The notes beneath the pieces are model-generated. The model was not told the DNA's origin. It saw nothing but the letters and a program-made list of their open reading frames with translations, and searched no databases. From contig CP064978.1 in NCBI GenBank assembly GCA_016699515.1, positions 892,359 to 956,358 on the forward strand: DNA of 64,000 nucleotides. Reading direction: 5' to 3'. Below, piece by piece: positions 4,806 through 63,186 of the stretch (the first letter of the stretch is position 1; each line of letters begins with the position of its first letter). A program made the position numbers and the translations under genes. Source of the stretch: Candidatus Peregrinibacteria bacterium (GTDB lineage Bacteria > Patescibacteriota > Gracilibacteria > UM-FILTER-43-11).

Positions 4806-5580
4806 TACTCATTGCCATATTCATCTAATGCCAGAATCTGAGCGAAAGGCCGTGTTTGACCGTGCGCTTGCGGCCGGGGTTCAAAAACTGATCAATGTGG
4901 CCTGTAGCCTGGAAGACGTGGCCTTATGCCTGCCCATCACGGATCAGATGGACAATGTATGGACCAGTGTTGGCCTGCACCCGACTACCCTGGGTTATGA
5001 TTTGGAAAAGGATTTAGAACGGGTTTACGAAGTGGCTAAGGATGAGCGGAAAGTGGTGGGGATCGGTGAGATGGGGCTCGATTATTACCACAATAAATTC
5101 GACCGTGACACGCAGATTGATTATTTGGTGGGACACTTAAACATAGCCAAACAGCTGGATCTGCCCGCCATCATTCATTGTCGCGCGGGCAAAAATCCCG
5201 GAGAAAACGAATCGGCTTTTTTGGATCTGATTAAGGTGCTAAAAAAGGAACGGTTTTCACGAGCGCAAATTCACTGCTTTAGCGGGAATTTGCGCGAGGC
5301 TGATCAGCTTTTGGAGCTGGGTTGCTATCTTTCATTCACCGGAATTATCACCTATTCACGGAACGAGGAGCTTCGAGACATTGTAAAACGCACGCCGCTC
5401 GACCGCATGTTGATTGAAACCGATAGTCCGTATTTAACGCCCGACGGTCATCGTGGTAAACCTAATGAACCAGCCTATGTAATGGAAGTGGCCAAGACGA
5501 TCGCAACTGTAAAACAATTACCCCTTGAGCACGTTCTTTTGCAGACCAGTACGAATGCGGAGGGGTTTTTTAATATTTAG
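4789..5580 (+). CDS. tatD: TatD-family metal-dependent hydrolase
   Basis: IDTHCHI start, GEMGLDY, IIHCR and ETDSPYL motifs. Confidence 0.85.
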   Translation: MPYAIDTHCHIHLMPESERKAVFDRALAAGVQKLINVACSLEDVALCLPITDQMDNVWTSVGLHPTTLGYDLEKDLERVYEVAKDERKVVGIGEMGLDYYHNKFDRDTQIDYLVGHLNIAKQLDLPAIIHCRAGKNPGENESAFLDLIKVLKKERFSRAQIHCFSGNLREADQLLELGCYLSFTGIITYSRNEELRDIVKRTPLDRMLIETDSPYLTPDGHRGKPNEPAYVMEVAKTIATVKQLPLEHVLLQTSTNAEGFFNI

Positions 5581-5630
5581 GGTGTAGGGTGTAGGGCATA
5601 GTGAGTAGGGCATAGTGAGTAGGGCATAGT
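5581..5630. repeat. Left arm of inverted low-complexity repeat (word GTAGGGCATAGTGA)
   Basis: GGTGTAGGGTGTAGGGCATAGTGAGTAGGGCATAGTGAGTAGGGCATAGT, an imperfect reverse complement of 6027..6075. Confidence 0.8.
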
Positions 5631-6026: not shown

Positions 6027-6075
6027 CTATGCTCTACGAACCACACCCTATGCCCTACTCACTACACCCTACCCC
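6027..6075. repeat. Right arm of the inverted repeat pairing with 5581..5630
   Basis: CTATGCTCTACGAACCACACCCTATGCCCTACTCACTACACCCTACCC. It overlaps the last codons and stop of radA. Confidence 0.8.
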
Positions 6076-7403
6076 CTTATTAATTGCTTCTGCCACCGAC
6101 GATACTTGAGTGACCGATAATTTTGAATTCACCTTCATTGTAGGCATAAGGATTTTTTGAAAACCGAGCTGCTCGCATTCCTTGAGCCGTCTTTCGATCT
6201 GCATTACCGAGCGCACCTCGCCCGAAAGGCCAATTTCCCCCATCACCGCCAGATCGGATGGGAGGGGTTTTTTGAGTTTTGAGCTGGCGATTGCCAAGGC
6301 GACGGCTAGATCGACGGCGGGCTCGGAAAGCTTGAGGCCCCCCACTACATTTACGAACACGTCGGAACTGTCGAGTTTGATTTGGGCATAGCGCTCCAAC
6401 ACGGCCATAATAATATTGAGGCGATTGAGCTCAATTCCGCTGGCGGTACGCTTGGGGTAACCAAAGTGAGTGGCCGAGGTTAGTGCCTGCACTTCGACCA
6501 AAAACGTGCGCGTTCCTTCGAGTACCGGTACCACCACCGAGCCAATTGGGTTCTTAGGGCGTCCTTCCAAAAAGATGGCGGATGGGTTTTTCACACTGAT
6601 CATGCCCTCTTCTTTCATGTCAAATACTCCCACTTCGTCGACCGCACCGAAACGATTTTTGGTGGTGCGGAGCAAGCGGTAATGATGATGGGAATCCCCT
6701 TCTAAAAACAAAACCGTATCGACCAGATGGGTTAGCACTTGGGGGCCGGCCAAATTGCCGTCTTTGTTCACATGGCCAATCAGCAAAACGGGAATCCCTT
6801 GAGATTTGGCTAGCTGCATCAACTGTTCCGCCACGTAACGAACCTGAGAAATAGAACCCGCCTGACTTTCGATATTTTCGCTTTGCATCACCTGGACGGA
6901 ATCGACCACCACAAAGCCGGGTTTTTCGGATTGGATGGTGGCCAAGATCGATTCTAAATGATACGCGTTCATCACATGAATGCCTGACTTTAGCCCTAAT
7001 CTTCGCCCGCGCGAGGCGATTTGTTCGACCGATTCTTCGCCCGAAAAATAAAGCACTTTTCGATCGAGTTTGGCCAGTTCGTTGGCCACCTGGAGCGTGA
7101 GCGTTGATTTTCCGATTCCGGGCAAACCGGCCAGCAAGGTGATCGAGTCGGCCACCAGGCCCCGCCCACCGCCCGGTCGAATTCGTCAATGCCGGTGTTC
7201 AAGCGCTTTTTAGTGATTTCGATCGACTGAATGGTGACTTCGGGCTTCAAAGCCATTGCCGAAATCAGCGGTTTATCATTTTTACCCACATTCACCACAT
7301 CTTCCACCAAGGTGTTCCACTGCTTGCACCCCATACATTGCCCCGACCATCGCGAGGATTCTTGGCTACAATTACTGCAAACGTAGATTGATTTTAGTTT
7401 CAT
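6055..7403 (-). CDS. radA: DNA repair protein RadA (one frame break)
   Basis: N-terminal zinc ribbon CSNCSQ..CMGCKQWNT, Walker A GLPGIGKST and a Lon-like C-terminal domain. The break is in the C4 run 7160..7163; one extra base restores ..AVGGGLVADSITLLAG. Confidence 0.9.
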
Positions 7404-7408
7404 CCTTC

Positions 7409-7442
7409 TTAGTTAAGAGTTAATAATTGAGAGTTAAGAGTT
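7409..7442. repeat. Left arm of inverted repeat (word TAAGAGTTAA)
   Basis: TTAGTTAAGAGTTAATAATTGAGAGTTAAGAGTT. It pairs with 7779..7816 and encodes the C-terminus (..LNSQLLTLN) and stop of the enclosed gene. Confidence 0.8.
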
Positions 7443-7777
7443 GTTTTTTTGATTGCGCCCAGGATGCGTAAAAGCTCTTCGCAGTCTTTGATCAGTACCG
7501 TCACTTTATCCAGGGGTGCCAACTCGGAATCCCTAATCAACCTAAGCCAATAATGGGTTTCTCGAGTTTCTTTGTAAGAAATACATAATTTTGCAATGAA
7601 ATCTTTTCGTGATTGTCCACCAGCAGCCTCCTCTACGTTGGCTCCGATGGATGTACCCGACCTTAAAATCTGTTTTGCAATTATGTATTCTCGTTGCTGA
7701 TGAGCAAGATATTTGTAAAAAGATATTATTTTAAGTGCAAAAAAATAACTTTTTTCTTGAATAATGCTACGTTTCAT
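7409..7777 (-). CDS. Four-helix-bundle protein (23S rRNA IVS protein / Avd-like family)
   Basis: 122 aa with SGTSIGANVEEA and ETHYWLRL motifs typical of this family. Confidence 0.8.
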   Translation of the reverse strand: MKRSIIQEKSYFFALKIISFYKYLAHQQREYIIAKQILRSGTSIGANVEEAAGGQSRKDFIAKLCISYKETRETHYWLRLIRDSELAPLDKVTVLIKDCEELLRILGAIKKTTLNSQLLTLN

Positions 7778-7778
7778 T

Positions 7779-7816
7779 TTAATTCTTAATTATTAACTCT
7801 TAATTCTTAACTAAAG
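7779..7816. repeat. Right arm of inverted repeat pairing with 7409..7442
   Basis: TTAATTCTTAATTATTAACTCTTAATTCTTAACTAAAG. Confidence 0.8.
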
Positions 7817-11121: not shown

Positions 11122-12587
11122 TTAAAGTGATAACCCCTCTGAGCCAATCACAATACTCAGGTCGGCGCCGGGGAAATCTTGCGACTGATCGCTTGGGATC
11201 GACTCAACGGATAAAAATTCTTCCAGAGCCTTTATTTGCAGCGGTAATGCCGGAACCACTCTTTCCTTTCGATCCAAAGTCCATTGATTGAATTGAATGA
11301 ATGTTTTTTCTGATTCAATGCGATTTCCAGCCGCGTCAAGATAATCATCGATGTTCACCACGTCGAAGCCATAACGCGTTAACTGAGTAGCGATTTTACG
11401 GGCAGCGCCGGATGCCCCACTAGCATTGAGCACTTCCAGCCGAGCCGGATTGGCCATGGCCATGCCGTGATGAAATAAAAGCGAAGCGTATCGCTGAATC
11501 ATTTTAAAGTCACCTCCAAAAGGCACCAGTACATATAGTCCATCATAATCGTCTCGCAAGGGGACGTATAAAAATCCGCCATCGCGCTCGGGATCGTCAT
11601 TCAACACTTTCATAACCAAATTATTTCGATCAAAATGAGTGGCGAATTTTGCCATCGTGATCAGCTCACGTAATTCCATATCGGTATTCATGTTGTTTTG
11701 AATGGAATTGTAGATGTCTGTGAGCGTGCCGGGGCTAGTGAGCACTCCAGCGGATAAAGCTTTTTCTTTGATCGCCAAAAGCACTTGCTGCTGGCGCAGT
11801 GCACGATCGAAGTCTGAGGTGGTTTTTCGGCTACGCACGTATTTTAGCGCCGTTTCTCCGTCTAATTCTTGGGGCCGGCGGCGATGCGAAACGTTTTATA
11901 ACCCGTGTCGGTGTCGTTGGGATAATATGGATCTTCGATGGAGGCGTGCACGTTGTCGTTTACCCCCCCCATTGCATCGACCACCTCCACAAATCCACCA
12001 AAATCCACTCGAATGTAGTAGTGAATATCAAGATTTAATATATTCGATAATAAGGTTCGATAAACTTCAAAACCCTCCGGGTCGCCTAATGTTTGAGTGT
12101 TAGTGACATAGAACTGGTTAATTTTTCCGCTTCCGTACCCTTCGGTATGCAAAAAGAGGTCTCGTGGAATTGATAACATGGAAACCTGGTAGTTTTCAAA
12201 GTCGATGCTGGCCACAATGATCGTATCAATCAAACCGGCACCGTCACGCTCAAATCCCCCATCACCCAGCAAGACAATGTTGGTGCGCCCGCTTTCATCA
12301 TGTTTTAGCTCTTGCCCCGCCACAAACAGTAGTGACTTGAGGTCAAAATCCCAAATAAACCCAAGAAGCACCCGCGTGATGCTGAAGACCACGACTATGC
12401 TCACCAGCACCATGGTGGTGCCCACCACCACGCTGCGACCACGATACAAACCGATCACCGCACGGCCTAACGGCTTTAGAATTTTTCTTCCCAAAAAGAG
12501 CGCCAGCCACTTTATAAAAGAGAGCACATGTTTTAATGGCTTTAGGGGCGGATTTTTTCTGATTTGTCTTGTTTTGAAAGAGGTCAT
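11122..12587 (-). CDS. LytR-CpsA-Psr (LCP) family protein (one frame break)
   Basis: N-terminal TM, NIVLLGDGG..LIDTIIVASID, LSIPRDL. The break is in the G4 run 11881..11884; an extra base gives ..RIAAGPQELDGETALKYVRSRKTTSDFDRA. Confidence 0.8.
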
Positions 12588-12669
12588 TCGCTTTGGTTAG
12601 CCGCGGAAAACCTTACCACTTTTGCAAGTGGTGGGCAATGCTAAAGACTCCGGGGATTGTGGAGTGATC

Positions 12670-12699
12670 GTAGAGTGTGGTCGTACGACCACACTCTAC
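12670..12699. terminator. Perfect 30-nt palindrome downstream of rplL
   Basis: GTAGAGTGTGGTCGTACGACCACACTCTAC. There is no clear U-tract on the minus strand, so the terminator role is uncertain. Confidence 0.4.
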
Positions 12700-12710
12700 G
12701 CCCTCGTTCA

Positions 12711-13816: not shown

Positions 13817-13860
13817 CTTAGTAGTTAAGAGTTAAGAGTTAATAATTAAGAGTTATTAAC
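13817..13860. repeat. Solo arm of the TAAGAGTTAA word repeat
   Basis: GTAGTTAAGAGTTAAGAGTTAATAATTAAGAGTTATTAAC directly upstream of the rplJ start. It has the same word and orientation as 7409..7442. Confidence 0.7.
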
Positions 13861-15464: not shown

Positions 15465-15467
15465 CTT

Positions 15468-15505
15468 CTTTAGTTAGGAGTTAAGCGTTTATAATTAAGA
15501 GTTAG
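15468..15505. repeat. Solo arm of the TAAGAGTTAA word repeat between rplS and rplU
   Basis: CTTTAGTTAGGAGTTAAGCGTTTATAATTAAGAGTTAG. It contains the rplS stop codon (15495..15497) and its last codons. Confidence 0.65.
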
Positions 15506-16031
15506 ACTCTTCTTTCATTTCTTCGGCTGATTCTTCTTGGGGAACTTCTTCGACTACCGGAGCTTCGGCACTTTCTTCGGCTTGATCCATGGCAGTTTCT
15601 TCGGCTTTTTTAGCTGCTTCCGCTTCTACCGCTTCGGCAATCAAAGCGTCCATTTTGGCTTCTTCATCGGCTCGTTCTTGATCCGTCACTTGTTTTTCCT
15701 TCAAGCGAGCAGACTTACCAAAGCGATCGCGCATGTAGTACAGTTTAGCGCGACGCACTTTCGCCTTTTTGCGAATGTCGATCTTTACGATGTTGGCCGA
15801 ATGAAAAGGGAACACTTTTTCCACTCCAATGCCTTCTACCACCTTGCGAACCGTGAAGGTTTTAGAAAGTCCTGATCCACTGGCCACACGAATCACCAAA
15901 CCTTCAAAAATCTGAACGCGCTCTTTACCGGCTTCTTTAATTTTTTGGTGCACACTCACCGTGTATCCCGCACGTACTTCGGGGATGCGTTTGAATTGTG
16001 ACTTCTGTACTTCTTGAATCAGTGGATGCAT
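15495..16031 (-). CDS. rplS: 50S ribosomal protein L19 with an acidic C-terminal extension
   Basis: The L19 core (PEVRAGYTVSVHQKIKE.., RRAKLYYMRD) is followed by about 60 aa rich in E/A. Confidence 0.9.
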   Translation of the reverse strand: MHPLIQEVQKSQFKRIPEVRAGYTVSVHQKIKEAGKERVQIFEGLVIRVASGSGLSKTFTVRKVVEGIGVEKVFPFHSANIVKIDIRKKAKVRRAKLYYMRDRFGKSARLKEKQVTDQERADEEAKMDALIAEAVEAEAAKKAEETAMDQAEESAEAPVVEEVPQEESAEEMKEESNS

Positions 16032-22824: not shown

Positions 22825-24616
22825 TTATGAATCTATTTCTTCACTTTTGGCGATGGAATGGGCGATGGCCAGAATGGTTTCTTTAAGCTCCACGGGGCCC
22901 TTCACCACGTAATGGCTCGCTTCATCCCGCGGGACGGTGGCGTAGAATATTCCATTTTCCGTATTTTCGGAGGTGGTTTTTTGGCCTGAATCCAACCACA
23001 ATTCAATCAATGCCTGGTCGAGCTCTTCCACCTCTTTATCGGCGAATCCCACCAGCCATAAATGCCCTTCTGCCGCGCCGAAACTACGAAAATACCAATT
23101 TTTTGGGTAGTAAACATCGAATTGTTTGTGGGTATTTTGGTAGAGCCTCATGTTGTCGAGTGCCACTTGAATAGGCACTAGCTTTTCTTCCGTAAGCTCA
23201 CCGGCTGGTTCGACTGGTTCGGCTGGTTCGACTGGTTCGGCTGGTTCGACTGGCTTAACCGGTTCGACAGGTTCCGGCTCGGCATTTTGAACTTTGGCAA
23301 TTTGAATCGCCTCGCCGGACACCAAAGCCCACTTTGTCTTTTTCTGCTCGATAGAGCGCTTTTTGGTTAAATTGAAGCGATGTGTTATTCACGAGGGTAT
23401 ACTGATACCCCGCCCGGAATGTTTCGCCGTTTTGGGTGTAAATTACAAAAAGGATTTGGTCGGATTCTACCACCTCGTGGCGCACCACTTCGGCGTCGGT
23501 CGGAATAAGGTTTTGTTGATTAAAAAAAGCGATCACATTGCGAGCGGAAGTAATCGGCTCGGTGGAATCGCTCTCTTGTTTTTCGGCGATGAGCGCATCC
23601 AATTGCGCCTGTCGATCCGCCTGCTCGTCAACATCAATTGATGCTTCGGGCATCTTGGGCTCATCTAAACACACATAGCCGGTGGGGCACTTGTTTTGAT
23701 TGTAGGTGCGTGGCTTGTAATTGGTGCAGCCGGCGGGCACGGGAACAAAGGGGCAATTCAAACTTTCGTCGGTTGAATTGATGGGCACACATACCCCTTC
23801 GGAAGCTTGATCGCCGCCATTCAATTCACAGCGAAATCCTTCGGCACAAGCCAGTTGCTCTGCCCCTCCGCATTGATCTCCACTTTTTACGGATGTTTGA
23901 GCGATTTGAATGCTTTCAATCATGGCTAAAAAGTCTCGCTCCACGTTTTCGTCTCTTTTGAGCAATTGAATTTGGATTACTTTTTGGCGGGCGGTGTTTT
24001 CGATATAAAAACGAATTGAGTCGCTGGCTTGAAAACGCAACGCTGACTTGCCCGAAATGGTTACCGGCTGCCCTACGCTATTTTCGCGATCAGCCACCCA
24101 TGCATCGAGCCCCAAATCGGTGTCGATTGTATTGATCTGAACTAGGTCTTCTGCATTGTGGCGAAAGGTAATACTGCCGACCCCCTCACGCTGTTCCCAG
24201 TATGCCGGATATTCAAAGGTAAGGTCGTCGCTGGCACTTTGGTATTGCTTCTTTTGCCCCAAAGCACTTTCGTCCGCCAATTCGATTTGTAATACATTAA
24301 ACACCTGTGTTTTATTGTCGATTAACGTTTGCATTTCGCCTTTCACTTGCACTTTTTGATCCACAAAATTCGACAGCGAAATGCGACTGCTTTGCAGGGC
24401 GATTTCTCCGGTTGCGGTTATCAGTTGATGCGTTCCTCTCTTAAAGCGATTCGAGTCGATTGGTTTTAGCACCCCGATGTACATTTGTGATGCCTCACCG
24501 GTATCGGTCATTTCGCTGCCCGGCTGATTGATGCGATCGTCTAAATTGGGAGTTTTGGGTTGGCAAGCGCTCACCATCAACAAGGTTACTACCGCTAGTA
24601 AAAATTGTTTTTTCAT
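22825..24616 (-). CDS. Large lipoprotein with Cys-rich middle region and PVEPAE tandem repeat (one frame break)
   Basis: Lipobox LLMVSAC. ORFs 23255..24616 and 22825..23325 join (break somewhere in 23310..23365). Tandem repeat at 23203..23280. Confidence 0.6.
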
Positions 24617-29493: not shown

Positions 29494-29522
29494 GACTCCG
29501 CCCGCCGTAGGCGGGCGGAGTC
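29494..29522. other. GC-rich 13-bp hairpin inside the pilus operon
   Basis: GACTCCGCCCGCC-GTA-GGCGGGCGGAGTC. Confidence 0.6.
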
Positions 29523-40716: not shown

Positions 40717-40728
40717 ATTTTTTGGATT

Positions 40729-40775
40729 AAAAATTACGAATTCACAATGACGAATTACGAATTTTTTCGTAATCG
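40729..40775. repeat. Low-complexity region (word ATTACGAAT) with a small hairpin
   Basis: AAAAATTACGAATTCACAATGACGAATTACGAATTTTTTCGTAATCG between the folD stop and the purF start. Confidence 0.65.
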
Positions 40776-43013: not shown

Positions 43014-46000
43014 TTGGGTATGGGTTCAGTTGCCTTAAAGCACGGGTTTAGACCTAAAATGGCTTTGATCATTGGGTTTTTTGGCGTGCTGGCCAGCGCA
43101 TTGCTGGTTTCGACCGCCGAACAAGCCGGTACTACGTTTTCACTGACCGCCAATACGGTTCCGGTTGGGCAGTACCCCACCACACTCACTTTGGACATTG
43201 ACCCCAATGCCGAGAGCGCCGGGCTTTTAGGAGCCGAAGTGCATCTCAGCTATGATCCCAATTTACTTTCGATTCAGTCGATTTCTACCAATTGCGGCTT
43301 TAATAGCTGTCTTGATTTTTCGGAATCCGGCACGCTCAAGTTTTTGGGAGCTTCGGGATTGCAGCAAGATGGTGGCCAGATACTCACCACGACTCAAACG
43401 TTCGCCACACTTCAAATTTTAGCTGCTCAAAGCAGTACCCTTACTTTTAGCAAATGTTCCATCATCACCAACCAGGCTTCGTTGGCAACGTGCACGGCAC
43501 TGCCTTTTACGATCCAGGCGAACGGCACCGTTTCGACTTCTTGTGGGAACGCTACCTTGGACACCGGTGAAACGTGTGACGACGGCAATACGGTGAATGG
43601 CGATGGTTGCAGCAGTGTGTGTGCTTTGGAAACCGGTGGAGGAATGTGTGGAAATTCCGCGGTGGACACCGGTGAAACGTGTGACGATGGCAATACGGTG
43701 AATGGCGATGGTTGCAGCAGTGTGTGTGCTTTGGAAATTTGCGGCAATGGTATTTTGAATTTTGGAGAACAGTGTGACGATGGAAACCAAATTGACACCG
43801 ACAGCTGCACGAATACTTGTACCAACACTTCATTGGTGCTGGAAAATCCGATTTGTGGAAATTTGGTGATTGAAGGAAGTGAACAATGTGATGATGGAAA
43901 CGATTTGGCCGGCGACGGCTGCAATCAACAATGTTTGTTAGAAGTGATACGAAGAGAAGTGGCTTTGGACTTTTTGACGTTTAAAACGGTGAGTGGGGTT
44001 AAGAGCGCCTTGGTGGGCAAAACCCTTCCGCTGATCACCAATGCCCATTTTACGGATGAGAGCGTCCAAAACATCACCCAACTTGAAGGTGTGATTTATT
44101 CCAGCTCCAAACCAACTGTTGCCACCATTGAACAAGGGAATTTGATTACCAAGCGCAAAGGAACGACGACATTTTTTGTGAGCTATAGCACCGGTGGAGT
44201 GACTCGCAATGCGCAGTTTAGCTTTACGGTCACCGAACCTGCCCCCGAACCCGTTCCGGTGGCGCCCGTTGAACCAGTGAAAGAACCTGAAACTCCACCC
44301 GTAGTAGAAGCTCCGCCCCAAGAAGATCCATCGAATGAACCGCTTAGACCCGCCGCGCATTCACTGACCGAAGGTGAACTGGGTGCGATTGCTTCCGCCT
44401 CGGAAGTGGTGGAATCCGGTGCGTTTGTGGATCAATTTCAACTTGATCTGCCCGACTCCACTCAAACCATCGACCATCAAATTGAATCGTGCACCGGGAA
44501 TGGTTATTTTAAAGGCATCGATCTTTCTACGCTCATTGGTGATGCGGACGGTGATGGTCTTACCGATCGATCGGAATGTTACGTAGGCACGAATCCACGC
44601 TCGTATGATACCGATCGGGATGGATGCAGCGACGGAGAAGAGGTGAACTTGCTTGCCACCAATCCCACGCGAGCGGGAGATTGTGATGCAAAAGCAGAAT
44701 CGGAAGCGGAACCTATCAAGCCCATGGTTTCTATCACCGATCCCCAACAAGGATGGATTGTGCGCAGCAACACGCCGCGGTTAGCCGGAGTGGTCAGCCG
44801 CAACGCGACTCAGGTGGAATTGGTTGCCTTTCATGCTGATCAGTCCGCCCTGGCCGCCTTAAAAAAAGTGGCTGAACAATTGGCGGCCGATCCGCGAGCC
44901 GACCTGGCGAGCAGCTTAATGGATGAACTGGACAATCGCATAAAACAGCTGAACGCGTTTTGGCTGGAGAATGGAGACTTTTTTGACTATGGCTCACTCA
45001 ATACTTTAATTCGCCGCGTGAGCGATATTGCCACTCAGAATGGCGCAATGGGGTGATTGAAAACGGCGACACTGCAGCGATTCAAGAAGGTGCGACTGCG
45101 ATCCTTGATTTGGTCAATCCCGCGCTTTTGAACCCGATTTATCTTGGTAAAACTCAGGAGTTTTCTGAAACGTTTGTAGGTGAAAAGAAATTGAATCGCT
45201 TTGAAATTAATGCTTTCGAGCTGCAAGATCAAAAGGTGTACAACTTGGTTGCAATTGCCACTTACGAAGATGGAACCACTTTAAAATCGGCCGCTGTTTC
45301 TTTTGGAGTTAATGAAGGCTTGGGCGTTAACGCGCCGGACCCACGCACCCTGGATAACGTACCGATTGAGTCCGATCAACTTAACTTTAGTTGGATTCCC
45401 GGGGCTTATGCACAATCCGACTCCCTCATTCGCATTCATCAGACCCAACCGGTGATTGAAGGCGATTCGGAGTTTGGCACGCAAGTGTATGCCATTTGGA
45501 ATAGTTTGGTTTTGGCTTCATCGGTTATTTCGGATAGTGAGGAGGGCTTCTTTTCGATCAAGGCCCCGCAGGCTTTGGAAGGTGGATCACTTCATCGTGT
45601 GAGCTTGTACGCCTTAAAACGTGTGGGCAATAAGGTGATTCGTTCCGATACGGTCGATGTGCATTTTGAAGTGGCTCCCGCTGCCTTGAGTGTATTGAAT
45701 GTATCGCTCGCCCTTGGCGTGCTGGCCCTTTTGATCGCGATTTATTGGATCGTTCGTCGAGTGCTCATGCGCCGAAAATCATCGTTGAATCCTGATGACT
45801 TGTTGCCCGAGGAAGGGCGTGTGGAACGTGTGCTGCATACCTACGACCATTCCATTGCCAGTTTTTCTCCACTGCCTACTCATCCGCAACCCTTGGTGTT
45901 TCCGGCCGCTCCTTCTCCTTTTCCGGTTACAAAACCGGCTGCTCCGTCGGCAACGCCCGTTGCCTCCTCGCTGATTTCACCGTTCCCCTTACTACTGCCG

Positions 46001-47533: not shown

Positions 47534-48725
47534 TTAGATGACATAATGCCCCCCCACGCTTTGGCGTCGCTTTGCGCAGGCGTCTAAAATGGCTTTAGCT
47601 ACCAGTTTTCGGTGATGAATGCGGATATCACGCGAGGGGATCGAGTCGATTTCGACCCGTGCCTGCGCATATCCGTCCGCACTACGAATAATTCCAGCAT
47701 GCTCCCACATGATTTTTCCCAGGCGCTTGGCATAGGCTTTTACCTCGGGGAGAGGTTCGATGATGAGGGTGGGTGGGTTTTCGAATGATGTTTTTTGAAG
47801 GCGCGACCCTTCGACGAGCTCAGGATCATTCGCGCCTTCTTTCGACTCAATACTATTTGCCAAGCGCTCGGCAAATACCATTCCTTCTAAAAGGGCGTTT
47901 GACGCCAGTCGGTTGGCTCCATGCACGCCGGTGCAGGCAACTTCTCCCACGGCATACAAACCCGGCAGCTGGGTTTTTGCATTCAAATCGACCGGAATCC
48001 CGCCGCTGGCAAAGTGGGCCACCGGGGTAATGGGTACGCGGTCTACTGTTAAGTCGATGCCATAGTCTTTCAGGCGTTTATAAATGTTGGGAAACTTTTT
48101 TGATTTCAGCCGCGTTCAAATGATTCATTTGCAAATAAACTCCCCCTTCATTTGCTCAAAATAAATCGCTCGAGTGACGATGTCTCGCGGCGCCAATTCA
48201 GCGTCCACATGAACCTTTTAAAAACTCAACTCCGGCCTCATTTACAATTTTAGCGCCGAAGCCACGCAGCGTTTCGGACAACAAAAAATAACGCCCTGCG
48301 TCTAAATGATCCACCGCGGTGGGAGTAACCTGTTTAATCAAATGATTGAGAATGTCTTGCCCGGTAAAATCACTGGTGTGCCATACGCGCGCATGGCTGT
48401 GTGCCGCTTCGAGCGCGGGTTCCTGCTGAAAGGGAACCCCGATCGATTTTAAAAATCGAATCGAGCGCGGAGCATGCTCCACTAAAACCCGCACCGCCTT
48501 TTCGTCATTCAAATAACTGCCGGCCTTGAGCGTATCTTGAATGTGCGACTCGAAGGAATCTTCCGGCAACATGACCGCAGCCACTCCGCCCTGAGCCCAA
48601 TAAGTATTGGCTTCACGCAATTTTCCTTTGGTTACCACCGTTACCGAGCCTTTATCCTTTAAAAAATAAGCGGCCGAGAGTCCGGCGATACCGGAACCAA
48701 TGATGAGAAAATCGGTTTGATTCAT
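47534..48725 (-). pseudogene. nadB: L-aspartate oxidase, degraded (internal deletion plus at least three frame breaks)
   Basis: FAD N-terminus DFLIIGSGIAGLSAA and C-terminal HGANRLASNALLE are present. About 100 aa between the H..D.TG and LLSE.LRG.GA regions are absent relative to E. coli NadB as I recall it. 48040..48190 needs several frame changes. Confidence 0.7.
47797..47843. repeat. 47-nt palindromic element, copy inside nadB
   Basis: GAAGGCGCGACCCTTCGACGAGCTCAGGATCATTCGCGCCTTCTTTC is the exact reverse complement of 49068..49114. It is translated as KEGANDPELVEGSRL. Confidence 0.85.
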
Positions 48726-48790
48726 TTTTTATAGTCAATCCTTATTCTTATAACTTCTTTTGCGAAAATACCTCCACTTGCCTGTTGATA

Positions 48791-49801
48791 TTATAGCGAT
48801 CCGGTGTTTTTGATACAAAAATAAGCCGCCCCCGCAATCATAGCAGCGTTGTCGGTGCAGTAGATTAGTTTTTGCGGCATGCAAAGCGGCAGGCGGTCGT
48901 TTAATTTTTCGGTGACCGCTTGGCGGAGCGACTGGTTGGCCGACACTCCCCCGGCCAAATGAACCTCTTTTACATCGAAGGCTTCGGCGGCGGCCACGAG
49001 TTTATCGGAAAGGACATCGATTACGGCTGCCTGAAAGCTGGCGGCAAGGTTGTTGATATCCGTTTCTGAAAGAAGGCGCGAATGATCCTGAGCTCGTCGA
49101 AGGGTCGCGCCTTCTTTGGTTAAATTCTCTACCTGGCGCAATACCGCGCTTTTAAGGCCGGAAAACGAAAAATTATAACGATTGTTTTTGTCTAAATGCA
49201 CGCGCGGAAAATTGAAGGCGGCAGGATTACCGGCGGCGGCACGTTTGCTGATGATGGGCCCGCCGGGGTATCCCAGCCCCAACATACGCGCAACTTTATC
49301 AAACGCTTCACCGGCGGCATCATCCAAAGTTTCGCCGATCGATTCAAATTCGTGATGTCCTTTTAACCGTACCAATTCGTTGTGTCCTCCGGAAACCGTG
49401 AGCACCAAAATAGGAAATTGAATTGGCTCGCTGCGCTCCAAAAAATTGGCATAAATATGCCCGGCAATATGGTGCGTGGGAATCAACGGCTTTTGATACA
49501 AATAACTGAGCGCCTGTGCGGTATTCACCCCCACCAAAAGCGAGGCGATCAGGCCCGGCGCGTGCGTAACGGCGATCGCGTCGATGTCACCCCATCCCAC
49601 TCCGGCTTTTTCCAAGGCTTCGTCGATCACCGGATTGATTTGTTTAAGATGCTCACGCGCTGCCACCTCGGGAACTACTCCCCCGGTTTTGGTGTGCAAA
49701 TCCATCGAACTGGCGATCACATTGCTGTGCACCTTGATTCCGTCTTCCACCACGGCGGCTGCCGTTTCGTCACAACTGGTTTCGATTCCGAGTATTTTCA
49801 T
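48791..49801 (-). CDS. tsaD: tRNA N6-adenosine threonylcarbamoyltransferase TsaD
   Basis: ILGIETSCDETAAAV, HIAGH, GGHNEL, GGVSAN. Confidence 0.9.
   Translation of the reverse strand: MKILGIETSCDETAAAVVEDGIKVHSNVIASSMDLHTKTGGVVPEVAAREHLKQINPVIDEALEKAGVGWGDIDAIAVTHAPGLIASLLVGVNTAQALSYLYQKPLIPTHHIAGHIYANFLERSEPIQFPILVLTVSGGHNELVRLKGHHEFESIGETLDDAAGEAFDKVARMLGLGYPGGPIISKRAAAGNPAAFNFPRVHLDKNNRYNFSFSGLKSAVLRQVENLTKEGATLRRAQDHSRLLSETDINNLAASFQAAVIDVLSDKLVAAAEAFDVKEVHLAGGVSANQSLRQAVTEKLNDRLPLCMPQKLIYCTDNAAMIAGAAYFCIKNTGSL
49068..49114. repeat. 47-nt palindromic element, copy inside tsaD
   Basis: GAAAGAAGGCGCGAATGATCCTGAGCTCGTCGAAGGGTCGCGCCTTC is translated on the minus strand as KEGATLRRAQDHSRL within TsaD. 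Confidence 0.85.
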
Positions 49802-49977: not shown

Positions 49978-50761
49978 ATGAATATGATCAACCCAATCGC
50001 ATTCCAACTTGGCCCCATTTCGGTTCATTGGTATGGCATTCTTTATGGCGTGGGGTTATTTGTGGGCCTGTGGATGCTGACGCAGTTGAACCAAAAACGA
50101 CCGGTTTTTAAAAACAATGATTCATGGTTTGATTTGCTATTTTGGGTATTTTTGCTGGGGGTGATTTTAGGAGGTCGATTGGGCTACGTGCTGTTTTACA
50201 ATCTGCCGTTCTATCTGGAGCCTCTCGCTAAAATTTTTGCCGTGTGGCAAGGCGGCATGTCTTTTCATGGCAGGCTTTTGGGCACTGCACTGGTGACCTA
50301 TTTATATGCCAAAAAGCGCCGCGTCCGTTTTGTGGATGTCGCCGATTTACTCGTTATTCCCAGGGGCGCTGGCCCAAAGCCTGGGCCGATTGGGGAATTT
50401 TATTAATGGTGAATTGATGGGGCGAGTGATTCAAAACGAATCGTGGCAATGGCTGGGGGTCGATTTTGGCGATGGTCTTCTGCGCTACCCTTCCCCCCTT
50501 TTTCAGTCGATCGCTTTATTGGTGAATTTTTTGATCCTGCTCTTTATTTTCAACCAAAAACCCAAACCAGGAACGCTGCTGGCCAGCTACCTGATGATGA
50601 ACGGGGGCTTTCGGCTAGTCACCGAACTCTTCCGCGAACCCGACACCCAGATTGGCTTTCTAATCGGCCATTTAACCTTGGGTCAGATCCTGAGCGTGGG
50701 AGTAATGGGGGTGGGGGTTTGCACGCTCGGCTTTTCTCTAAAATTCAATAAGAGTACTTGA
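49978..50761 (+). CDS. lgt: Prolipoprotein diacylglyceryl transferase (one frame break)
   Basis: VHWYGILY, GGRLGYV and GRLGNFINGEL motifs. The fragments join near 50355. Confidence 0.8.
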
Positions 50762-50799: not shown

Positions 50800-52068
50800 T
50801 TATGAGCTACGTGCGTATTCCATGGCAGTTTCTTTTGCTTCACTTCTATTAATTGCTGGATAAATAGACTGAGGAAACAGTGCCTCATCTAGCCTATGGT
50901 CAAAAAATCTTGCCACCTCGTACTCTTTCCAAGATCCCCCTCGTAAATTCATGTAATTTATAAATTGACGCTGAGTAAATATTTGAAATTCGTAATTTAC
51001 ACCTCCTATTATGTAATTTACCTTTGTCAATTCTAGGGCTGCGGAACCCACATTCCCTTTCTGCCTTCCGTACACCTCACGAAATTCTAATCCTTCGGCT
51101 TTGGCCGCTCTTTGAAGTGCGCTTTGAAATTCATTAATATCCTCTTGAGATTGACAAATAACTTGCAGACCGTTTAAGTCTCTATCTAATAAAGACATAT
51201 CTTTTGTGTCTCTTCTTAACATTTTCAATACGCGAGAAATCGGACTCTTAGTTCTTTGTTCAACTACTATATTTGCTGCAGAGCCGTCTTCTCTAGTGAA
51301 TTGGCGCACTGCAATGGGCGTTAGCTTATGCCCATCTGGAATTTGATCTGGTGGACTAGGAAGACATTCCACTTCAATGCACCTCATTGAAACATCTTCA
51401 TGCTGTGATAATAGGTACATATCGCTGTGTTTACCCATATGCCCATTCCGAACGAAAAGGCGTTCATTCATTAAATCATTTAAACGATCTAATCCATCTT
51501 TTTTTTCTTCAATGTAGGTGTCTATTTTGGCAATTAAATCAATAAGAATCAATTTTCTTTTTGCCTCAAACCGAATGCGCTCATCGTATCGTCTGTCCAT
51601 TGATAATAAAAGGAGCTTAGCCGGATCGTTACAACTTTTTACCTCATTCATATGATCAATTTGCCATTCATCCTCACGAAACATTTTTTGAACTACATCC
51701 GAAATAAGGCTATTCACTATTTGGCCATAGCGAACAAGTATCGACTCTGGCAGCCGACCACAATGTCCAAACACTTTTTCAGTCATTCTATCCCTTATAA
51801 ATTTAGCTAACTCAATATTTGAGGATAACCTGTCTGCTTTTTTAAGATCTCGTAGCGTCACCCCACTTGGCAACAATTCCTCAATCTCCCTCCTTTTTTC
51901 AACAAACTGTTCATATCGACTTGGCCCGTCCACCCCCTTCCCCCTCCCTGTTCGTGCTAGTTTCAACAAAGCGGTGAGATCACTTTTTGCTGTGACTGCA
52001 AAAATGGTTCTTCCGGGCTTATCGCCAAGTTCTGGATAATTTTGCACATATCTCTCGGGCAAAGACAT
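50800..52068 (-). CDS. Orphan 422-aa protein with a possible divergent RelA/SpoT-type nucleotidyltransferase domain at the C-terminus
   Basis: Uninterrupted ORF. Weak motif resemblance: RTKSPISRVLKMLRR, DLNGLQVI, YEFQIFTQRQ. In two hand-counted 60-nt samples GC was 40-43%, against 52% in a tsaD sample. Confidence 0.4.
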   Translation of the reverse strand: MSLPERYVQNYPELGDKPGRTIFAVTAKSDLTALLKLARTGRGKGVDGPSRYEQFVEKRREIEELLPSGVTLRDLKKADRLSSNIELAKFIRDRMTEKVFGHCGRLPESILVRYGQIVNSLISDVVQKMFREDEWQIDHMNEVKSCNDPAKLLLLSMDRRYDERIRFEAKRKLILIDLIAKIDTYIEEKKDGLDRLNDLMNERLFVRNGHMGKHSDMYLLSQHEDVSMRCIEVECLPSPPDQIPDGHKLTPIAVRQFTREDGSAANIVVEQRTKSPISRVLKMLRRDTKDMSLLDRDLNGLQVICQSQEDINEFQSALQRAAKAEGLEFREVYGRQKGNVGSAALELTKVNYIIGGVNYEFQIFTQRQFINYMNLRGGSWKEYEVARFFDHRLDEALFPQSIYPAINRSEAKETAMEYARSS

Positions 52069-54432: not shown

Positions 54433-54996
54433 CTAGGCTTTTAGCAAATAGGCGGCAGCAAACACCACCGAAATCAGCATGGCGTTGATCATCATCATAA
54501 TGTAGTCGCGCGTGTAAGGAGGGTTTTTTGAGCCACTTTGAAAGATCCAGCGCGATACGTCGAAGAAGTAGGTGCCCAATACCAAAACGATCAAATAACT
54601 CATGAGCATTTGATTATAAAAAACCGAGGTGAATGATAATGGAACGGTGGCTTCGACCGGGCCGATTAAATACAGTGAGACCAAAATAATGGTGCCGACA
54701 TGTATGACTTGGTCCAACACGTACAACTCAAATTTGTTCCAATGGGGAACATACTTTTGAGCGCTGATTTTGAGTTGGTCGCTTAGGTTGTGCACCAAAA
54801 AAATCAATCCAATGCCCCACCACACCAGCGGCTGGTTGGAAAAAGGAAATACGAGCAATCCTGAAATCACCAAATGGGCAAAACTGTGGATCAGTACGCC
54901 TAAAAAATGCTTTTCTTTGTATTGCACTAACTGACGAGACTGAAGGGGGAAATCGGCTAGAAAATGAGAAAGAATTAGGTGGAGTGTGAGATACAT
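54433..54996 (-). CDS. DUF3307-like integral membrane protein
   Basis: LILSHFLADFPLQS N-terminal motif and about 6 TM helices. Confidence 0.5.
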   Translation of the reverse strand: MYLTLHLILSHFLADFPLQSRQLVQYKEKHFLGVLIHSFAHLVISGLLVFPFSNQPLVWWGIGLIFLVHNLSDQLKISAQKYVPHWNKFELYVLDQVIHVGTIILVSLYLIGPVEATVPLSFTSVFYNQMLMSYLIVLVLGTYFFDVSRWIFQSGSKNPPYTRDYIMMMINAMLISVVFAAAYLLKA

Positions 54997-55001
54997 TATT
55001 T

Positions 55002-55078
55002 TAATTACGAATGACGAATTACGAATGACGAATGACGAATTATGAATTACGAATTATGAATTACGAATGACGAATTAA
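55002..55078. repeat. Tandem degenerate heptamers GAATTAC/GAATGAC (word ATTACGAAT), single arm
   Basis: TTAATTACGAATGACGAATTACGAATGACGAATGACGAATTATGAATTACGAATTATGAATTACGAATGACGAATTAATA. It contains the stop codon of the cNMP-binding gene. Confidence 0.75.
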
Positions 55079-55467
55079 TAGAGTTCATTGGCTCTTTTCA
55101 CCACTTCGTAACTCACTCGGGTTGCGATCGACTCGTTCGTTTGCAATAAGTGATTGAAGTCCTCTTTGCTCAACGTCAACACTTCAACATCGGTAAGGGT
55201 TTTTAGGGTTGCATTGCGTGGCTCGTTAGACACCAGTGCCATTTCTCCAAAAAATGCATGATCGCCCAAGGTGCTCAAAATGGCATTGTCACGGATGACC
55301 TGAACTTTGCCGCGCTTGATGATGTACATGGTGTCGCCCAGCTGTCCCTCTTCAAAAATAATATGGTCTGCGGGAAAATAATTCATTTGCACCGTGCGGG
55401 CAATTTGATTGAGATCTTCGTCGCTCAATGATGCGAAAAAGGGAATGTTTTTTAGAATTTGTAGCAT
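55075..55467 (-). CDS. Single-domain cyclic-nucleotide-binding protein
   Basis: FFGEMALVSNEPRNATL, the canonical cNMP-binding phosphate-binding cassette pattern. 130 aa. Confidence 0.8.
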   Translation of the reverse strand: MLQILKNIPFFASLSDEDLNQIARTVQMNYFPADHIIFEEGQLGDTMYIIKRGKVQVIRDNAILSTLGDHAFFGEMALVSNEPRNATLKTLTDVEVLTLSKEDFNHLLQTNESIATRVSYEVVKRANELY

Positions 55468-63019: not shown

Positions 63020-63096
63020 GGTACCGTGGCGAAGTTGGCTAACGCTGGGCTCTGCAAAAGCTCCATTCGCAGGTTCGAGTCCCGCCGGTACCTCCA
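63020..63096 (+). tRNA. tRNA-Cys (anticodon GCA), CCA encoded
   Basis: GGTACCG/CGGTACC acceptor stem, anticodon stem GGGCT/AGCTC with loop CTGCAAA, T loop TTCGAGT (one A-C mismatch in the T stem), discriminator T, then CCA. Confidence 0.85.
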
Positions 63097-63186
63097 TTAA
63101 TAATAGACTAAGTCGGCGGACGAGAAGTTGATCCGCCGCAGGCGGAAGTCCCGCCGGTACCTCCATTCATTTTTACCTGTTGCCCA

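Follow-up and report, generated by a model that had tools for sequence, protein, structure and literature searches.

A 47-nt palindromic repeat in tsaD and a degraded nadB-like gene of a Peregrinibacteria genome, very likely a member of a clade-specific family of short palindromes

In a 64-kb stretch of the genome of a Candidatus Peregrinibacteria bacterium (contig CP064978.1; this whole stretch is hereinafter the window), two unrelated neighboring genes, tsaD and a degraded nadB-like gene, contain the same 47-nt palindromic sequence in opposite orientations. Comparison with the tsaD loci of related genomes makes it very likely that this repeat belongs, as a variant with an expanded loop, to a family of short, GC-rich palindromes specific to this clade of Peregrinibacteria. 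The complete explanation that we favor, and to which we give about an even chance, is that the palindromes are selfish or neutral sequences tolerated in protein loops and that the nadB copy was made locally by templated copying.

The inverted repeat in tsaD and nadB

The plus-strand segment 47797-47843 and the reverse complement of 49068-49114 are identical, with 0 mismatches over 47 nt, and the two segments form the longest inverted pair that a repeat finder detected in the window. At up to 3 mismatches, the repeat has only these 2 matches in the window, against 0.00 expected from 100 dinucleotide shuffles; its 9-nt arms, GAAGGCGCG and CGCGCCTTC, are confined there to the two copies, and neither a diverged copy (word-7 BLAST) nor a further member of the 28-nt family described below (covariance model) was found in the 64 kb. 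An earlier note on this DNA, made from the letters alone, had reported the exact complementarity and held that it could not result from convergence. Both statements are borne out: chance identity or convergence is ruled out for the 47-nt match, and the repeat is a real palindromic element. The features concerned are as follows.

47534..48725, minus strand: degraded nadB-like gene (FAD_binding_2, L-aspartate oxidase family), with an N-terminal open reading frame (ORF) at 48198-48725, a C-terminal ORF at 47534-48022 and the middle part in shifted frames
47797..47843, plus strand: repeat copy 1, in the C-terminal fragment of nadB; the minus strand reads (K)EGANDPELVEGSRL; 10-nt arms at 47797-47806 and 47830-47839
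47844..49067, no strand: 1,224-nt segment between the inverted copies, comprising the 3' end of tsaD, a 65-nt spacer and the 5' part of nadB; not inverted, colinear with the relatives
48791..49801, minus strand: tsaD, t6A37 threonylcarbamoyltransferase subunit; intact, 100% identical to NCBI QQR83204.1
49068..49114, minus strand: repeat copy 2, in tsaD, at residues ~230-245 (EGATLRRAQDHSRLL) of the 336-residue TsaD, as placed by exact match, translation and codon layout
49069..49117, no strand: full palindrome of the tsaD copy, with arms 49069-49081 and 49105-49117 and a 23-nt loop; fold of -24.8 kcal/mol

Perfect 10-nt arms, GAAGGCGCGA and TCGCGCCTTC, are present in both copies, and in tsaD the arms reach 13 nt (AAAGAAGGCGCGA and TCGCGCCTTCTTT) around the 23-nt loop, in agreement with the terminal inverted repeats described previously. 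All four combinations of strand and copy fold into a hairpin with a stem of 10-13 bp and an energy of -22 to -25 kcal/mol (z = -2.2 to -3.7), which is the outcome of the folding check that had been proposed. The flanking sequences are ccaaa..agaaa in the tsaD sense and, in the same orientation, tttttt..gactca for the nadB copy; inspection of these flanks revealed no target-site duplication or direct repeat around either copy.

The two host genes are in very different condition. TsaD matches the TsaD structures in the PDB at E = 2.5e-78, and its catalytic residues (H111, H115 and others) fall within invariant alignment columns. The nadB-like gene has lost, in frame, approximately 88 residues of the FAD-binding core (IKQV/TPTAVD..; the orthologs consist of 484-491 residues), and the remainder shows three frame changes, each located in a homopolymer run (A4-5, G5, A6), where long-read errors could account for them; for the deletion, a sequencing error is an unlikely cause. 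The C-terminal fragment is identical to QQR83202.1, which NCBI annotates as a separate protein. The gene order lgt-tsaD-nadB-prsW-nifU (Pfam) is conserved in the relatives, which have intact syntenic nadB orthologs. In the adjacent lgt gene (49978-50761), a 1-nt frameshift near 50360 (..ATTCCCAGGGGCGCT..) likewise leaves two overlapping ORFs, and together with the homopolymer shifts in nadB this suggests either residual long-read errors or ongoing gene decay.

Both hosts are on the minus strand, and the repeat is translated as ..KEGATLRRAQDHSRL.. in TsaD and as ..KEGANDPELVEGSRL.. in the C-terminal ORF of nadB, as given in the earlier note. The accompanying emphasis on in-frame, stop-free reading in both genes does not carry the same weight: 5 of the 6 reading frames of the element are open, so that the absence of stops in both orientations is unremarkable, and given the three frameshifts and the general degradation of nadB, being in frame has little meaning for that copy.

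A family of palindromes in related genomes

The tsaD copy occupies a loop where insertions are common. Among 35 close TsaD homologs, the nearest four (P0002-P0005, 75-78% identity) do not contain the segment. At the DNA level, the stretch from GLK to AASFQ spans 66 nt in the empty sites of the loci L001 and L217, which are among the nearest relatives, versus 108 nt in the window, hence a net insertion of 42 nt, that is, 14 residues; the T. maritima TsaD structures have 17 residues fewer at this segment. In the AlphaFold model (mean pLDDT 80), residues 229-243 lie between the helices 214-229 and 246-274, and pLDDT reaches its minimum, below 50, at residues 231-233. The proposed placement in a variable loop of TsaD is thus supported. 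Across 120 TsaD homologs, the basal length of the segment is 20 residues, and in 58 of the 120 it is interrupted, at one and the same point, by insertions of 2-40 residues; the inserts are mutually unrelated in sequence and patchy in distribution, such that sister sequences differ in their presence or absence. By eye, several of them resemble translations of hairpins or simple repeats (CHSRVGGNL..SHFRGND, CHSERSEES, VKPGMT x3, GVRRQTS x2). It follows that this loop is a place where inserted repeat DNA survives, and the 14 extra residues in the window appear to be a tolerated passenger rather than an adaptation.

The nadB copy presents a different picture. The interval from VF to VKAY consists of 43 residues in the window, 37-38 in seven orthologs and 46 in L218, which has a palindrome of its own there, and the net gain relative to the eight orthologs is 5 residues (+15 nt). 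With 47 nt present, a net gain of this size means that resident nadB sequence, about 30 nt of it, was replaced or lost, and the nadB copy is not a clean insertion. Where the earlier note proposed to look for an insertion of about 16 residues in alignments of both proteins, the net gain is thus 14 residues in TsaD and 5 in NadB. The orthologs contain the native sequence GAAAGAAGT (E-R-S) at or beside the left junction, which matches the element end GAAAGAAGG; judging from the orthologs only, GAAAGAAG at the nadB junction is a possible microhomology. None of the relatives compared has a palindrome of the GAAGGCG family at this nadB position.

Different is the situation at the tsaD site, for which the DNA-level sample consists of seven insert-bearing loci (L002, L003, L213, L214, L215, L216 and L218) in addition to the two empty sites. 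In 7 of 7 insert-bearing relatives, the palindrome begins at the same tsaD codon (AC[CT] GAA GGC), and the palindromes at this site have common outer arms, GAAGGCG...CGCCTTC, with co-varying inner stems. The core of the family is 28 nt long, GAAGGCG-N14-CGCCTTC, and is often lengthened to CCACC...GGTGG (core range 28-38 nt). The window element and the L002 palindrome have a 13-nt end and a 10-nt end in common, and the window element has about 15 extra bases in the middle. The palindromes at the tsaD site and the other family copies in the relatives are listed below.

L002, tsaD site: CCCCGAAGGCGCGAATGG/CCATTCGCGCCTTCGGGG; 36 nt, perfect
L003, tsaD site: CCGAAGGCGGGATTCA/TGAATCCCGCCTTCGG
L216, tsaD site: CCGAAGGCGATATTGG/CCAATGTCGCCTTCGG
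L213, tsaD site: GAAGGCCGGGAT-AATG-ATCCCGGCCTGC
L214, tsaD site: GAAGGCGCGGAA-CCGT-TTCCGCGCATGA
L215, tsaD site: GAAGGCGAGGAT-ATGA-ATCCTCGCCAAT
L218, tsaD site: GAAGGCGC-18 nt-GCGCCTTC
L003, position 4684: intergenic, in the lgt/tsaD interval, between divergent genes; 38 nt, perfect
L216, position 12448: intergenic, in the nifU/miaB-like interval, between convergent genes
L003 10448, L216 13378 and L215 11983: in the domain linker of a miaB-like gene (in frame in L003 and L216)

In the seven relatives, this codon is occupied by homologous palindromes that have the same arms, which makes a fresh insertion in tsaD improbable; we infer that the tsaD copy is the resident, long-standing one, whereas the nadB copy, with 47/47 identity, appears to be a recent secondary one. 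The earlier note had named the same peptide in relatives without the nucleotide repeat (ancestral sequence) as the observation that would count against an insertion, and this applies in part: the palindrome does look ancestral at the tsaD site in the seven relatives, but the peptide is not shared.

Copies at other loci provide further information on the family. In the miaB-like linker, the reading phase of the palindrome differs between the two copies that were translated (L003, PRRRRSASAPSG; L216, IEGAIGQSRLQ), and the miaB copy of L215 represents the same variant as that in tsaD of L216 (GAAGGCGATATT..CAATGTCGCC), so that copies at different loci are related, which indicates copying between loci. 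There are 3 copies per 11-18 kb in L003 and L216 versus 2 in the 64-kb window.

Two side observations concern the same genes. The nadB-like gene of L218 (3229-4704) contains a different perfect palindrome, GGGGATAGGCA/TGCCTATCCCC, in the inter-domain linker, and thus the NadB linker is insertion-tolerant as well; in L215, a 38-nt perfect palindrome, TTGTTGTAGTGGACGCAGA/TCTGCGTCCACTACAACAA, lies at 11617-11654 inside the miaB-like gene. Intragenic palindromes thus appear to be characteristic of this clade in general.

Searches beyond the clade returned no additional members. There are no family palindromes in 463 kb surrounding more distant tsaD genes, a control taken from a metagenome TsaD scan with relatives 46-59% identical among the matches listed. 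An exact 43-mer had no match in a collection of one genome per GTDB species, which does not include the source genome, and the window core is absent among the matches listed for an arms-only pattern in one genome per GTDB species; those listed are chance hairpins or terminators of GC-rich genomes and an unrelated, widespread repeat, ATTCCCGC-GAAG-GCGGGAAT. Viral contigs, phage records and plasmid records gave unrelated hairpins or no match, and Rfam contains no match for the element. A protein search for other in-frame copies in the same genome with the five open-frame peptides concatenated, a weak probe that did not recover both known carriers, produced 1 candidate and no match. Also among the matches to the arms-only pattern, the 28-nt GAAGGCG..CGCCTTC palindromes of other phyla (L028, L075, L078, L100) lie between genes, bordered by A/T runs, and were set aside as terminator-like look-alikes picked out by the pattern.

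The ATTCCCGC-GAAG-GCGGGAAT repeat, found in many phyla including the Candidate Phyla Radiation (CPR), consists of two inverted mini-hairpins around a hypervariable 12-30-nt spacer (loci L010, L011, L018, L027, L032, L034, L077, L107 and many others). In P0049 and P0060, the TsaD loops (CHSRVGGNL.. and CHSRENGNP..) look like in-frame translations of this repeat type.

The arms of the family change in a concerted manner. In nine aligned 28-mers, 92.9% of the cells are paired, compared to 72.9% in shuffles, with 0 of 500 shuffles reaching the observed value; 8 of the 14 pairs, the central one included, show changes on both sides, and the signal is lost when the partner columns are slid. Several copies are perfect through the symmetry axis (GGCC, CATG, GCGC), and the arms lengthen outward lineage by lineage (AAA/TTT in the window, CCCC/GGGG in L002, CCACC/GGTGG in L003). 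The outer arms of L213-L215 have decayed. Because the complementarity spans the central pair, which cannot form in an RNA hairpin, the alignment points to maintenance of the symmetry at the DNA level rather than via selection for RNA structure. Template switching within quasipalindromes is a known process that keeps symmetry at the DNA level. Most of the family 28-mers are stop-free in all six frames and, like the open frames of the window element, this aids persistence in ORFs.

Origin of the nadB copy and alternative explanations

Under the scenario that we favor, the palindromes would act as selfish or neutral repeat DNA that is either intergenic or read through in frame; within genes, they would persist in flexible loops and linkers, such as the helix-helix loop of TsaD, the linker of the miaB-like methylthiotransferase and the inter-domain linker of NadB, whereas insertions at other protein positions would be purged by selection. 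The resident tsaD copy would then have given rise to the nadB copy, most likely via hairpin-provoked template switching or short-patch templated repair, with a switch from one strand to the other at a single replication fork that would use microhomology. Such copying would account for the inverted orientation, the distance of 1.2 kb, the lack of a target-site duplication and the fact that some 30 nt of nadB were replaced instead of the element simply being inserted. The combination of 47/47 identity, inversion, a distance of 1,224 nt and the lack of a further copy in the 64 kb leads us to favor a recent, local templated copy over classical cut-or-copy transposition; taken separately, the step from tsaD to nadB by this route has, in our estimate, somewhat less than an even chance.

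Several observations weigh against this scenario. The nearest TsaD relatives (P0002-P0005) are free of any insert, and the copy in tsaD could have been inserted anew and independently rather than inherited. When the 23-nt loop is read in the nadB sense, it gives NDPELVEG, which is similar to native NadB linkers such as DKEELSEE (L001) and DKEKTVEI (L214), so that part of the element may derive from nadB, which would require a more complex history in two steps: templated filler from nadB may have entered the tip of the tsaD palindrome, followed by conversion back. The family is sparse in the window relative to L003 and L216, and the covariance model adds no member. The copy count covers 64 kb of a genome of 1.34 Mb, and a dispersed, high-copy family would favor enzymatic transposition. 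Finally, the co-variation of the arms could also reflect selection on a functional hairpin.

Transposition deserves the most attention among the alternatives, although we consider it rather unlikely. According to this explanation, the same palindrome family is moved by an enzyme acting in trans on single-stranded hairpins (a REP-associated tyrosine transposase, RAYT, or an IS200/IS605-type TnpA), and the repeat is a non-autonomous REPIN- or MITE-like (miniature inverted-repeat transposable element) sequence that hopped locally from tsaD to nadB. The dispersal of the family over at least 4 kinds of site in the relatives, the occupation of the miaB-like linker in different reading phases and the occurrence of one sequence variant at different loci of different genomes are all compatible with such an enzyme, as are the bare flanks, given that IS200/IS605-type elements leave no target duplication. 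Local hopping is common for transposons and would fit the short path from tsaD to nadB. Nevertheless, no transposase-like ORF is present near the copies or in the gene tables of the loci of 10 relatives, the typical REP head GTAG or CGTC is absent, nadB shows replacement of about 30 nt rather than insertion, and the window contains just two copies, to which the covariance model adds none.

It is improbable that the tsaD palindrome is instead a selected functional cis-element, namely an mRNA hairpin that controls how stable the tsaD-nadB transcript is or how it is processed or translated, or else an operator bound by a dimeric DNA-binding protein, with an accidental copy in nadB. The conservation of the tsaD position in seven relatives, the strong compensatory co-variation without conservation of the encoded peptide and the terminator- or operator-like placement of the intergenic copies (between convergent genes at L216 12448 and divergent genes at L003 4684) are what such an element would be expected to show. 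However, the central base pair is complementary despite being unpairable in an RNA hairpin, the element is missing altogether from about half of the clade, the nearest relatives among them, the outer arms have decayed in L213-L215, no Rfam family matches, and the hairpin is not terminator-like, with its 23-nt loop and no U-tract. An intrinsic terminator in particular was rejected in view of this loop, the tail CUUUCAGAAA and the location inside an ORF; a terminator scan flags only a partial 5-bp stem in antisense.

A technical origin, that is, duplication of the 47 nt by an assembly or polishing error, or a coincidental similarity of native sequences, has a very low probability. The record does resemble a long-read assembly with residual errors, as judged by the homopolymer frameshifts in nadB and the frameshift in lgt, but the gene sequence on both sides of each copy is correct and colinear, polishing should not be able to transplant an inverted 47-mer between dissimilar loci, identity over 47 nt by chance is excluded, and independent assemblies of the relatives contain the same family. 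The pair could also be read as the boundaries of an invertible segment (47-nt inverted repeats around 1,224 nt); inversion would fuse tsaD to antisense nadB, and the idea was rejected because the present gene order is colinear with that of all the relatives.

Beyond the favored scenario of local templated copying, a broader and more tentative proposition, which we rate as doubtful, is that Peregrinibacteria harbor previously undescribed 'self-perfecting' mini-palindromes (28-50 nt) that would spread within genes and from gene to gene by replication template switching, without a dedicated transposase, and be long-lived in essential genes because they land in flexible protein loops or are kept only there. 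If this is the case, such palindromes would continually supply reduced genomes with variation in loop length, and the tsaD/nadB pair would represent a copying event caught soon after it took place.

Other repeats in the window and comparison with known systems

The window contains additional repeats and mobile-element-like features. Two palindromes were considered as family members and rejected, given that they differ in sequence and do not match the family model significantly. The first, CGTAGAGTGTGGTCGT/ACGACCACACTCTACG at 12669-12700, is perfect over 32 nt and intergenic, lies just 3' of an rplL-like ORF and has a GTAG-type head like that of classical REPs; the second is a GC-rich palindrome with 13-nt arms, GACTCCGCCCGCC..GGCGGGCGGAGTC, at 29494-29522, between two same-strand ORFs. 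Simple repeats with units of about 7 nt or 14 nt (AATTACGAATGACG, TAGGGTG/TAGGGCA, TTAAGAGTTAAT), some arranged as inverted pairs, occur at the following sites.

54989-55093
40725-40759
5578-5630 and 6034-6077
7405-7445, 7780-7813, 13817-13857 and 15466-15506

The peptides RIMNHES and GVRRQTS x2 in the TsaD loops of other lineages look like translations of such simple repeats. A tandem 9-nt repeat of about 9 units (CGGCTGGTT/CGACTGGTT) is located at 23193-23273, at the overlap of two minus-strand ORFs, and cysteine-rich repeats of about 105 nt (CGN..DTGETCDDGNTVNGDGCSSVC) at 43542-43900 are part of a 680-residue ORF. The tRNA-Cys gene at 63020-63096 is followed, 69 nt downstream, by a partial copy of its 3' end with 85% identity (63137-63170), which is typical of the remnant of an attachment site of an integrated element. 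The 422-residue ORF that adjoins lgt (50800-52068) has only sub-threshold matches, to a RelA_SpoT nucleotidyltransferase region and to HNH_3.

One of the closest known systems is quasipalindrome or template-switch mutagenesis (reportedly described by Ripley and by the Lovett laboratory), in which imperfect inverted repeats are said to be 'corrected' to perfect ones. As proposed for the present case, it yields an inverted copy of nearby sequence without target duplication, through replacement rather than pure insertion, and it explains co-varying and lengthening arms without selection. To our knowledge, this process has been described within one palindrome, as point mutation or short-patch correction, and not as the spread of a repeat family between genes, which is what it would bring about here.

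With REPs and REPINs, the family shares GC-rich palindromes of 20-40 nt with a conserved outer part and a variable inner part or loop, the lack of target-site duplications and the occurrence in intergenic regions, where REPs can act as terminators or stabilizers. REPs are extragenic and have a GTAG or CGTC head, and REPINs are mobilized by RAYT transposases (PMC3733652); in contrast, both copies in the window, unlike some of those in the relatives, are inside ORFs, the family ends are (CCACC)GAAGG / CCTTC(GGTGG), and no RAYT gene adjoins the copies. Intragenic MITEs (ERIC, BOX, Correia and cyanobacterial elements; PMC10969869) likewise have terminal inverted repeats, here of 10 nt in nadB and 13 nt in tsaD, and occasionally form in-frame fusions with ORFs. 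However, MITEs are usually 50-500 bp long or more, have target-site duplications and derive from insertion sequences, whereas the element analyzed here is 47 nt long and shows no target-site duplication, and no parent insertion sequence is seen in the window or in the loci of the relatives.

The earlier note compared the element to the Rickettsia palindromic elements. The analogy holds for behavior, because the family is also found in frame in other genes of the relatives: in both cases, hairpin-forming repeat DNA is located in frame within housekeeping genes that are unrelated to one another, at sites where the protein fold can accommodate it (here the TsaD loop, the NadB linker and the miaB-like linker of the relatives), and orthologous insertions persist across species. 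It does not seem to extend to membership. The Rickettsia elements are ~100-150 bp long, fall into ten sequence families, reach tens of copies per genome and spread by an unknown mechanism (Ogata et al. 2000, summarized in PMC10969869); the 47-nt element (49 nt with full arms, core 28-38 nt), at about one third of that size, without a target-site duplication, from another phylum and with copies that are near-perfect palindromes through the center, does not appear to belong to these families. In full-text searches, we found no description of such elements in the literature on Peregrinibacteria or the CPR, as the earlier note had also stated for this kind of genome.

Apart from scattered intragenic MITEs, intragenic repeat DNA has so far been essentially a Rickettsia story. 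In the present case, the same behavior is seen in a CPR lineage, with much smaller and nearly perfect palindromes, one loop of the essential tsaD gene hit in many lineages and a 100%-identical pair that looks like a recent copying event. Such inserts inflate the apparent 'lineage-specific insertions' in marker proteins that are used for CPR phylogeny. This family offers a concrete system for asking how palindromes spread without target duplications, how the complementarity of their arms is kept over the long term and how much of the loop variation of proteins in tiny genomes arises at the DNA level as opposed to being selected.

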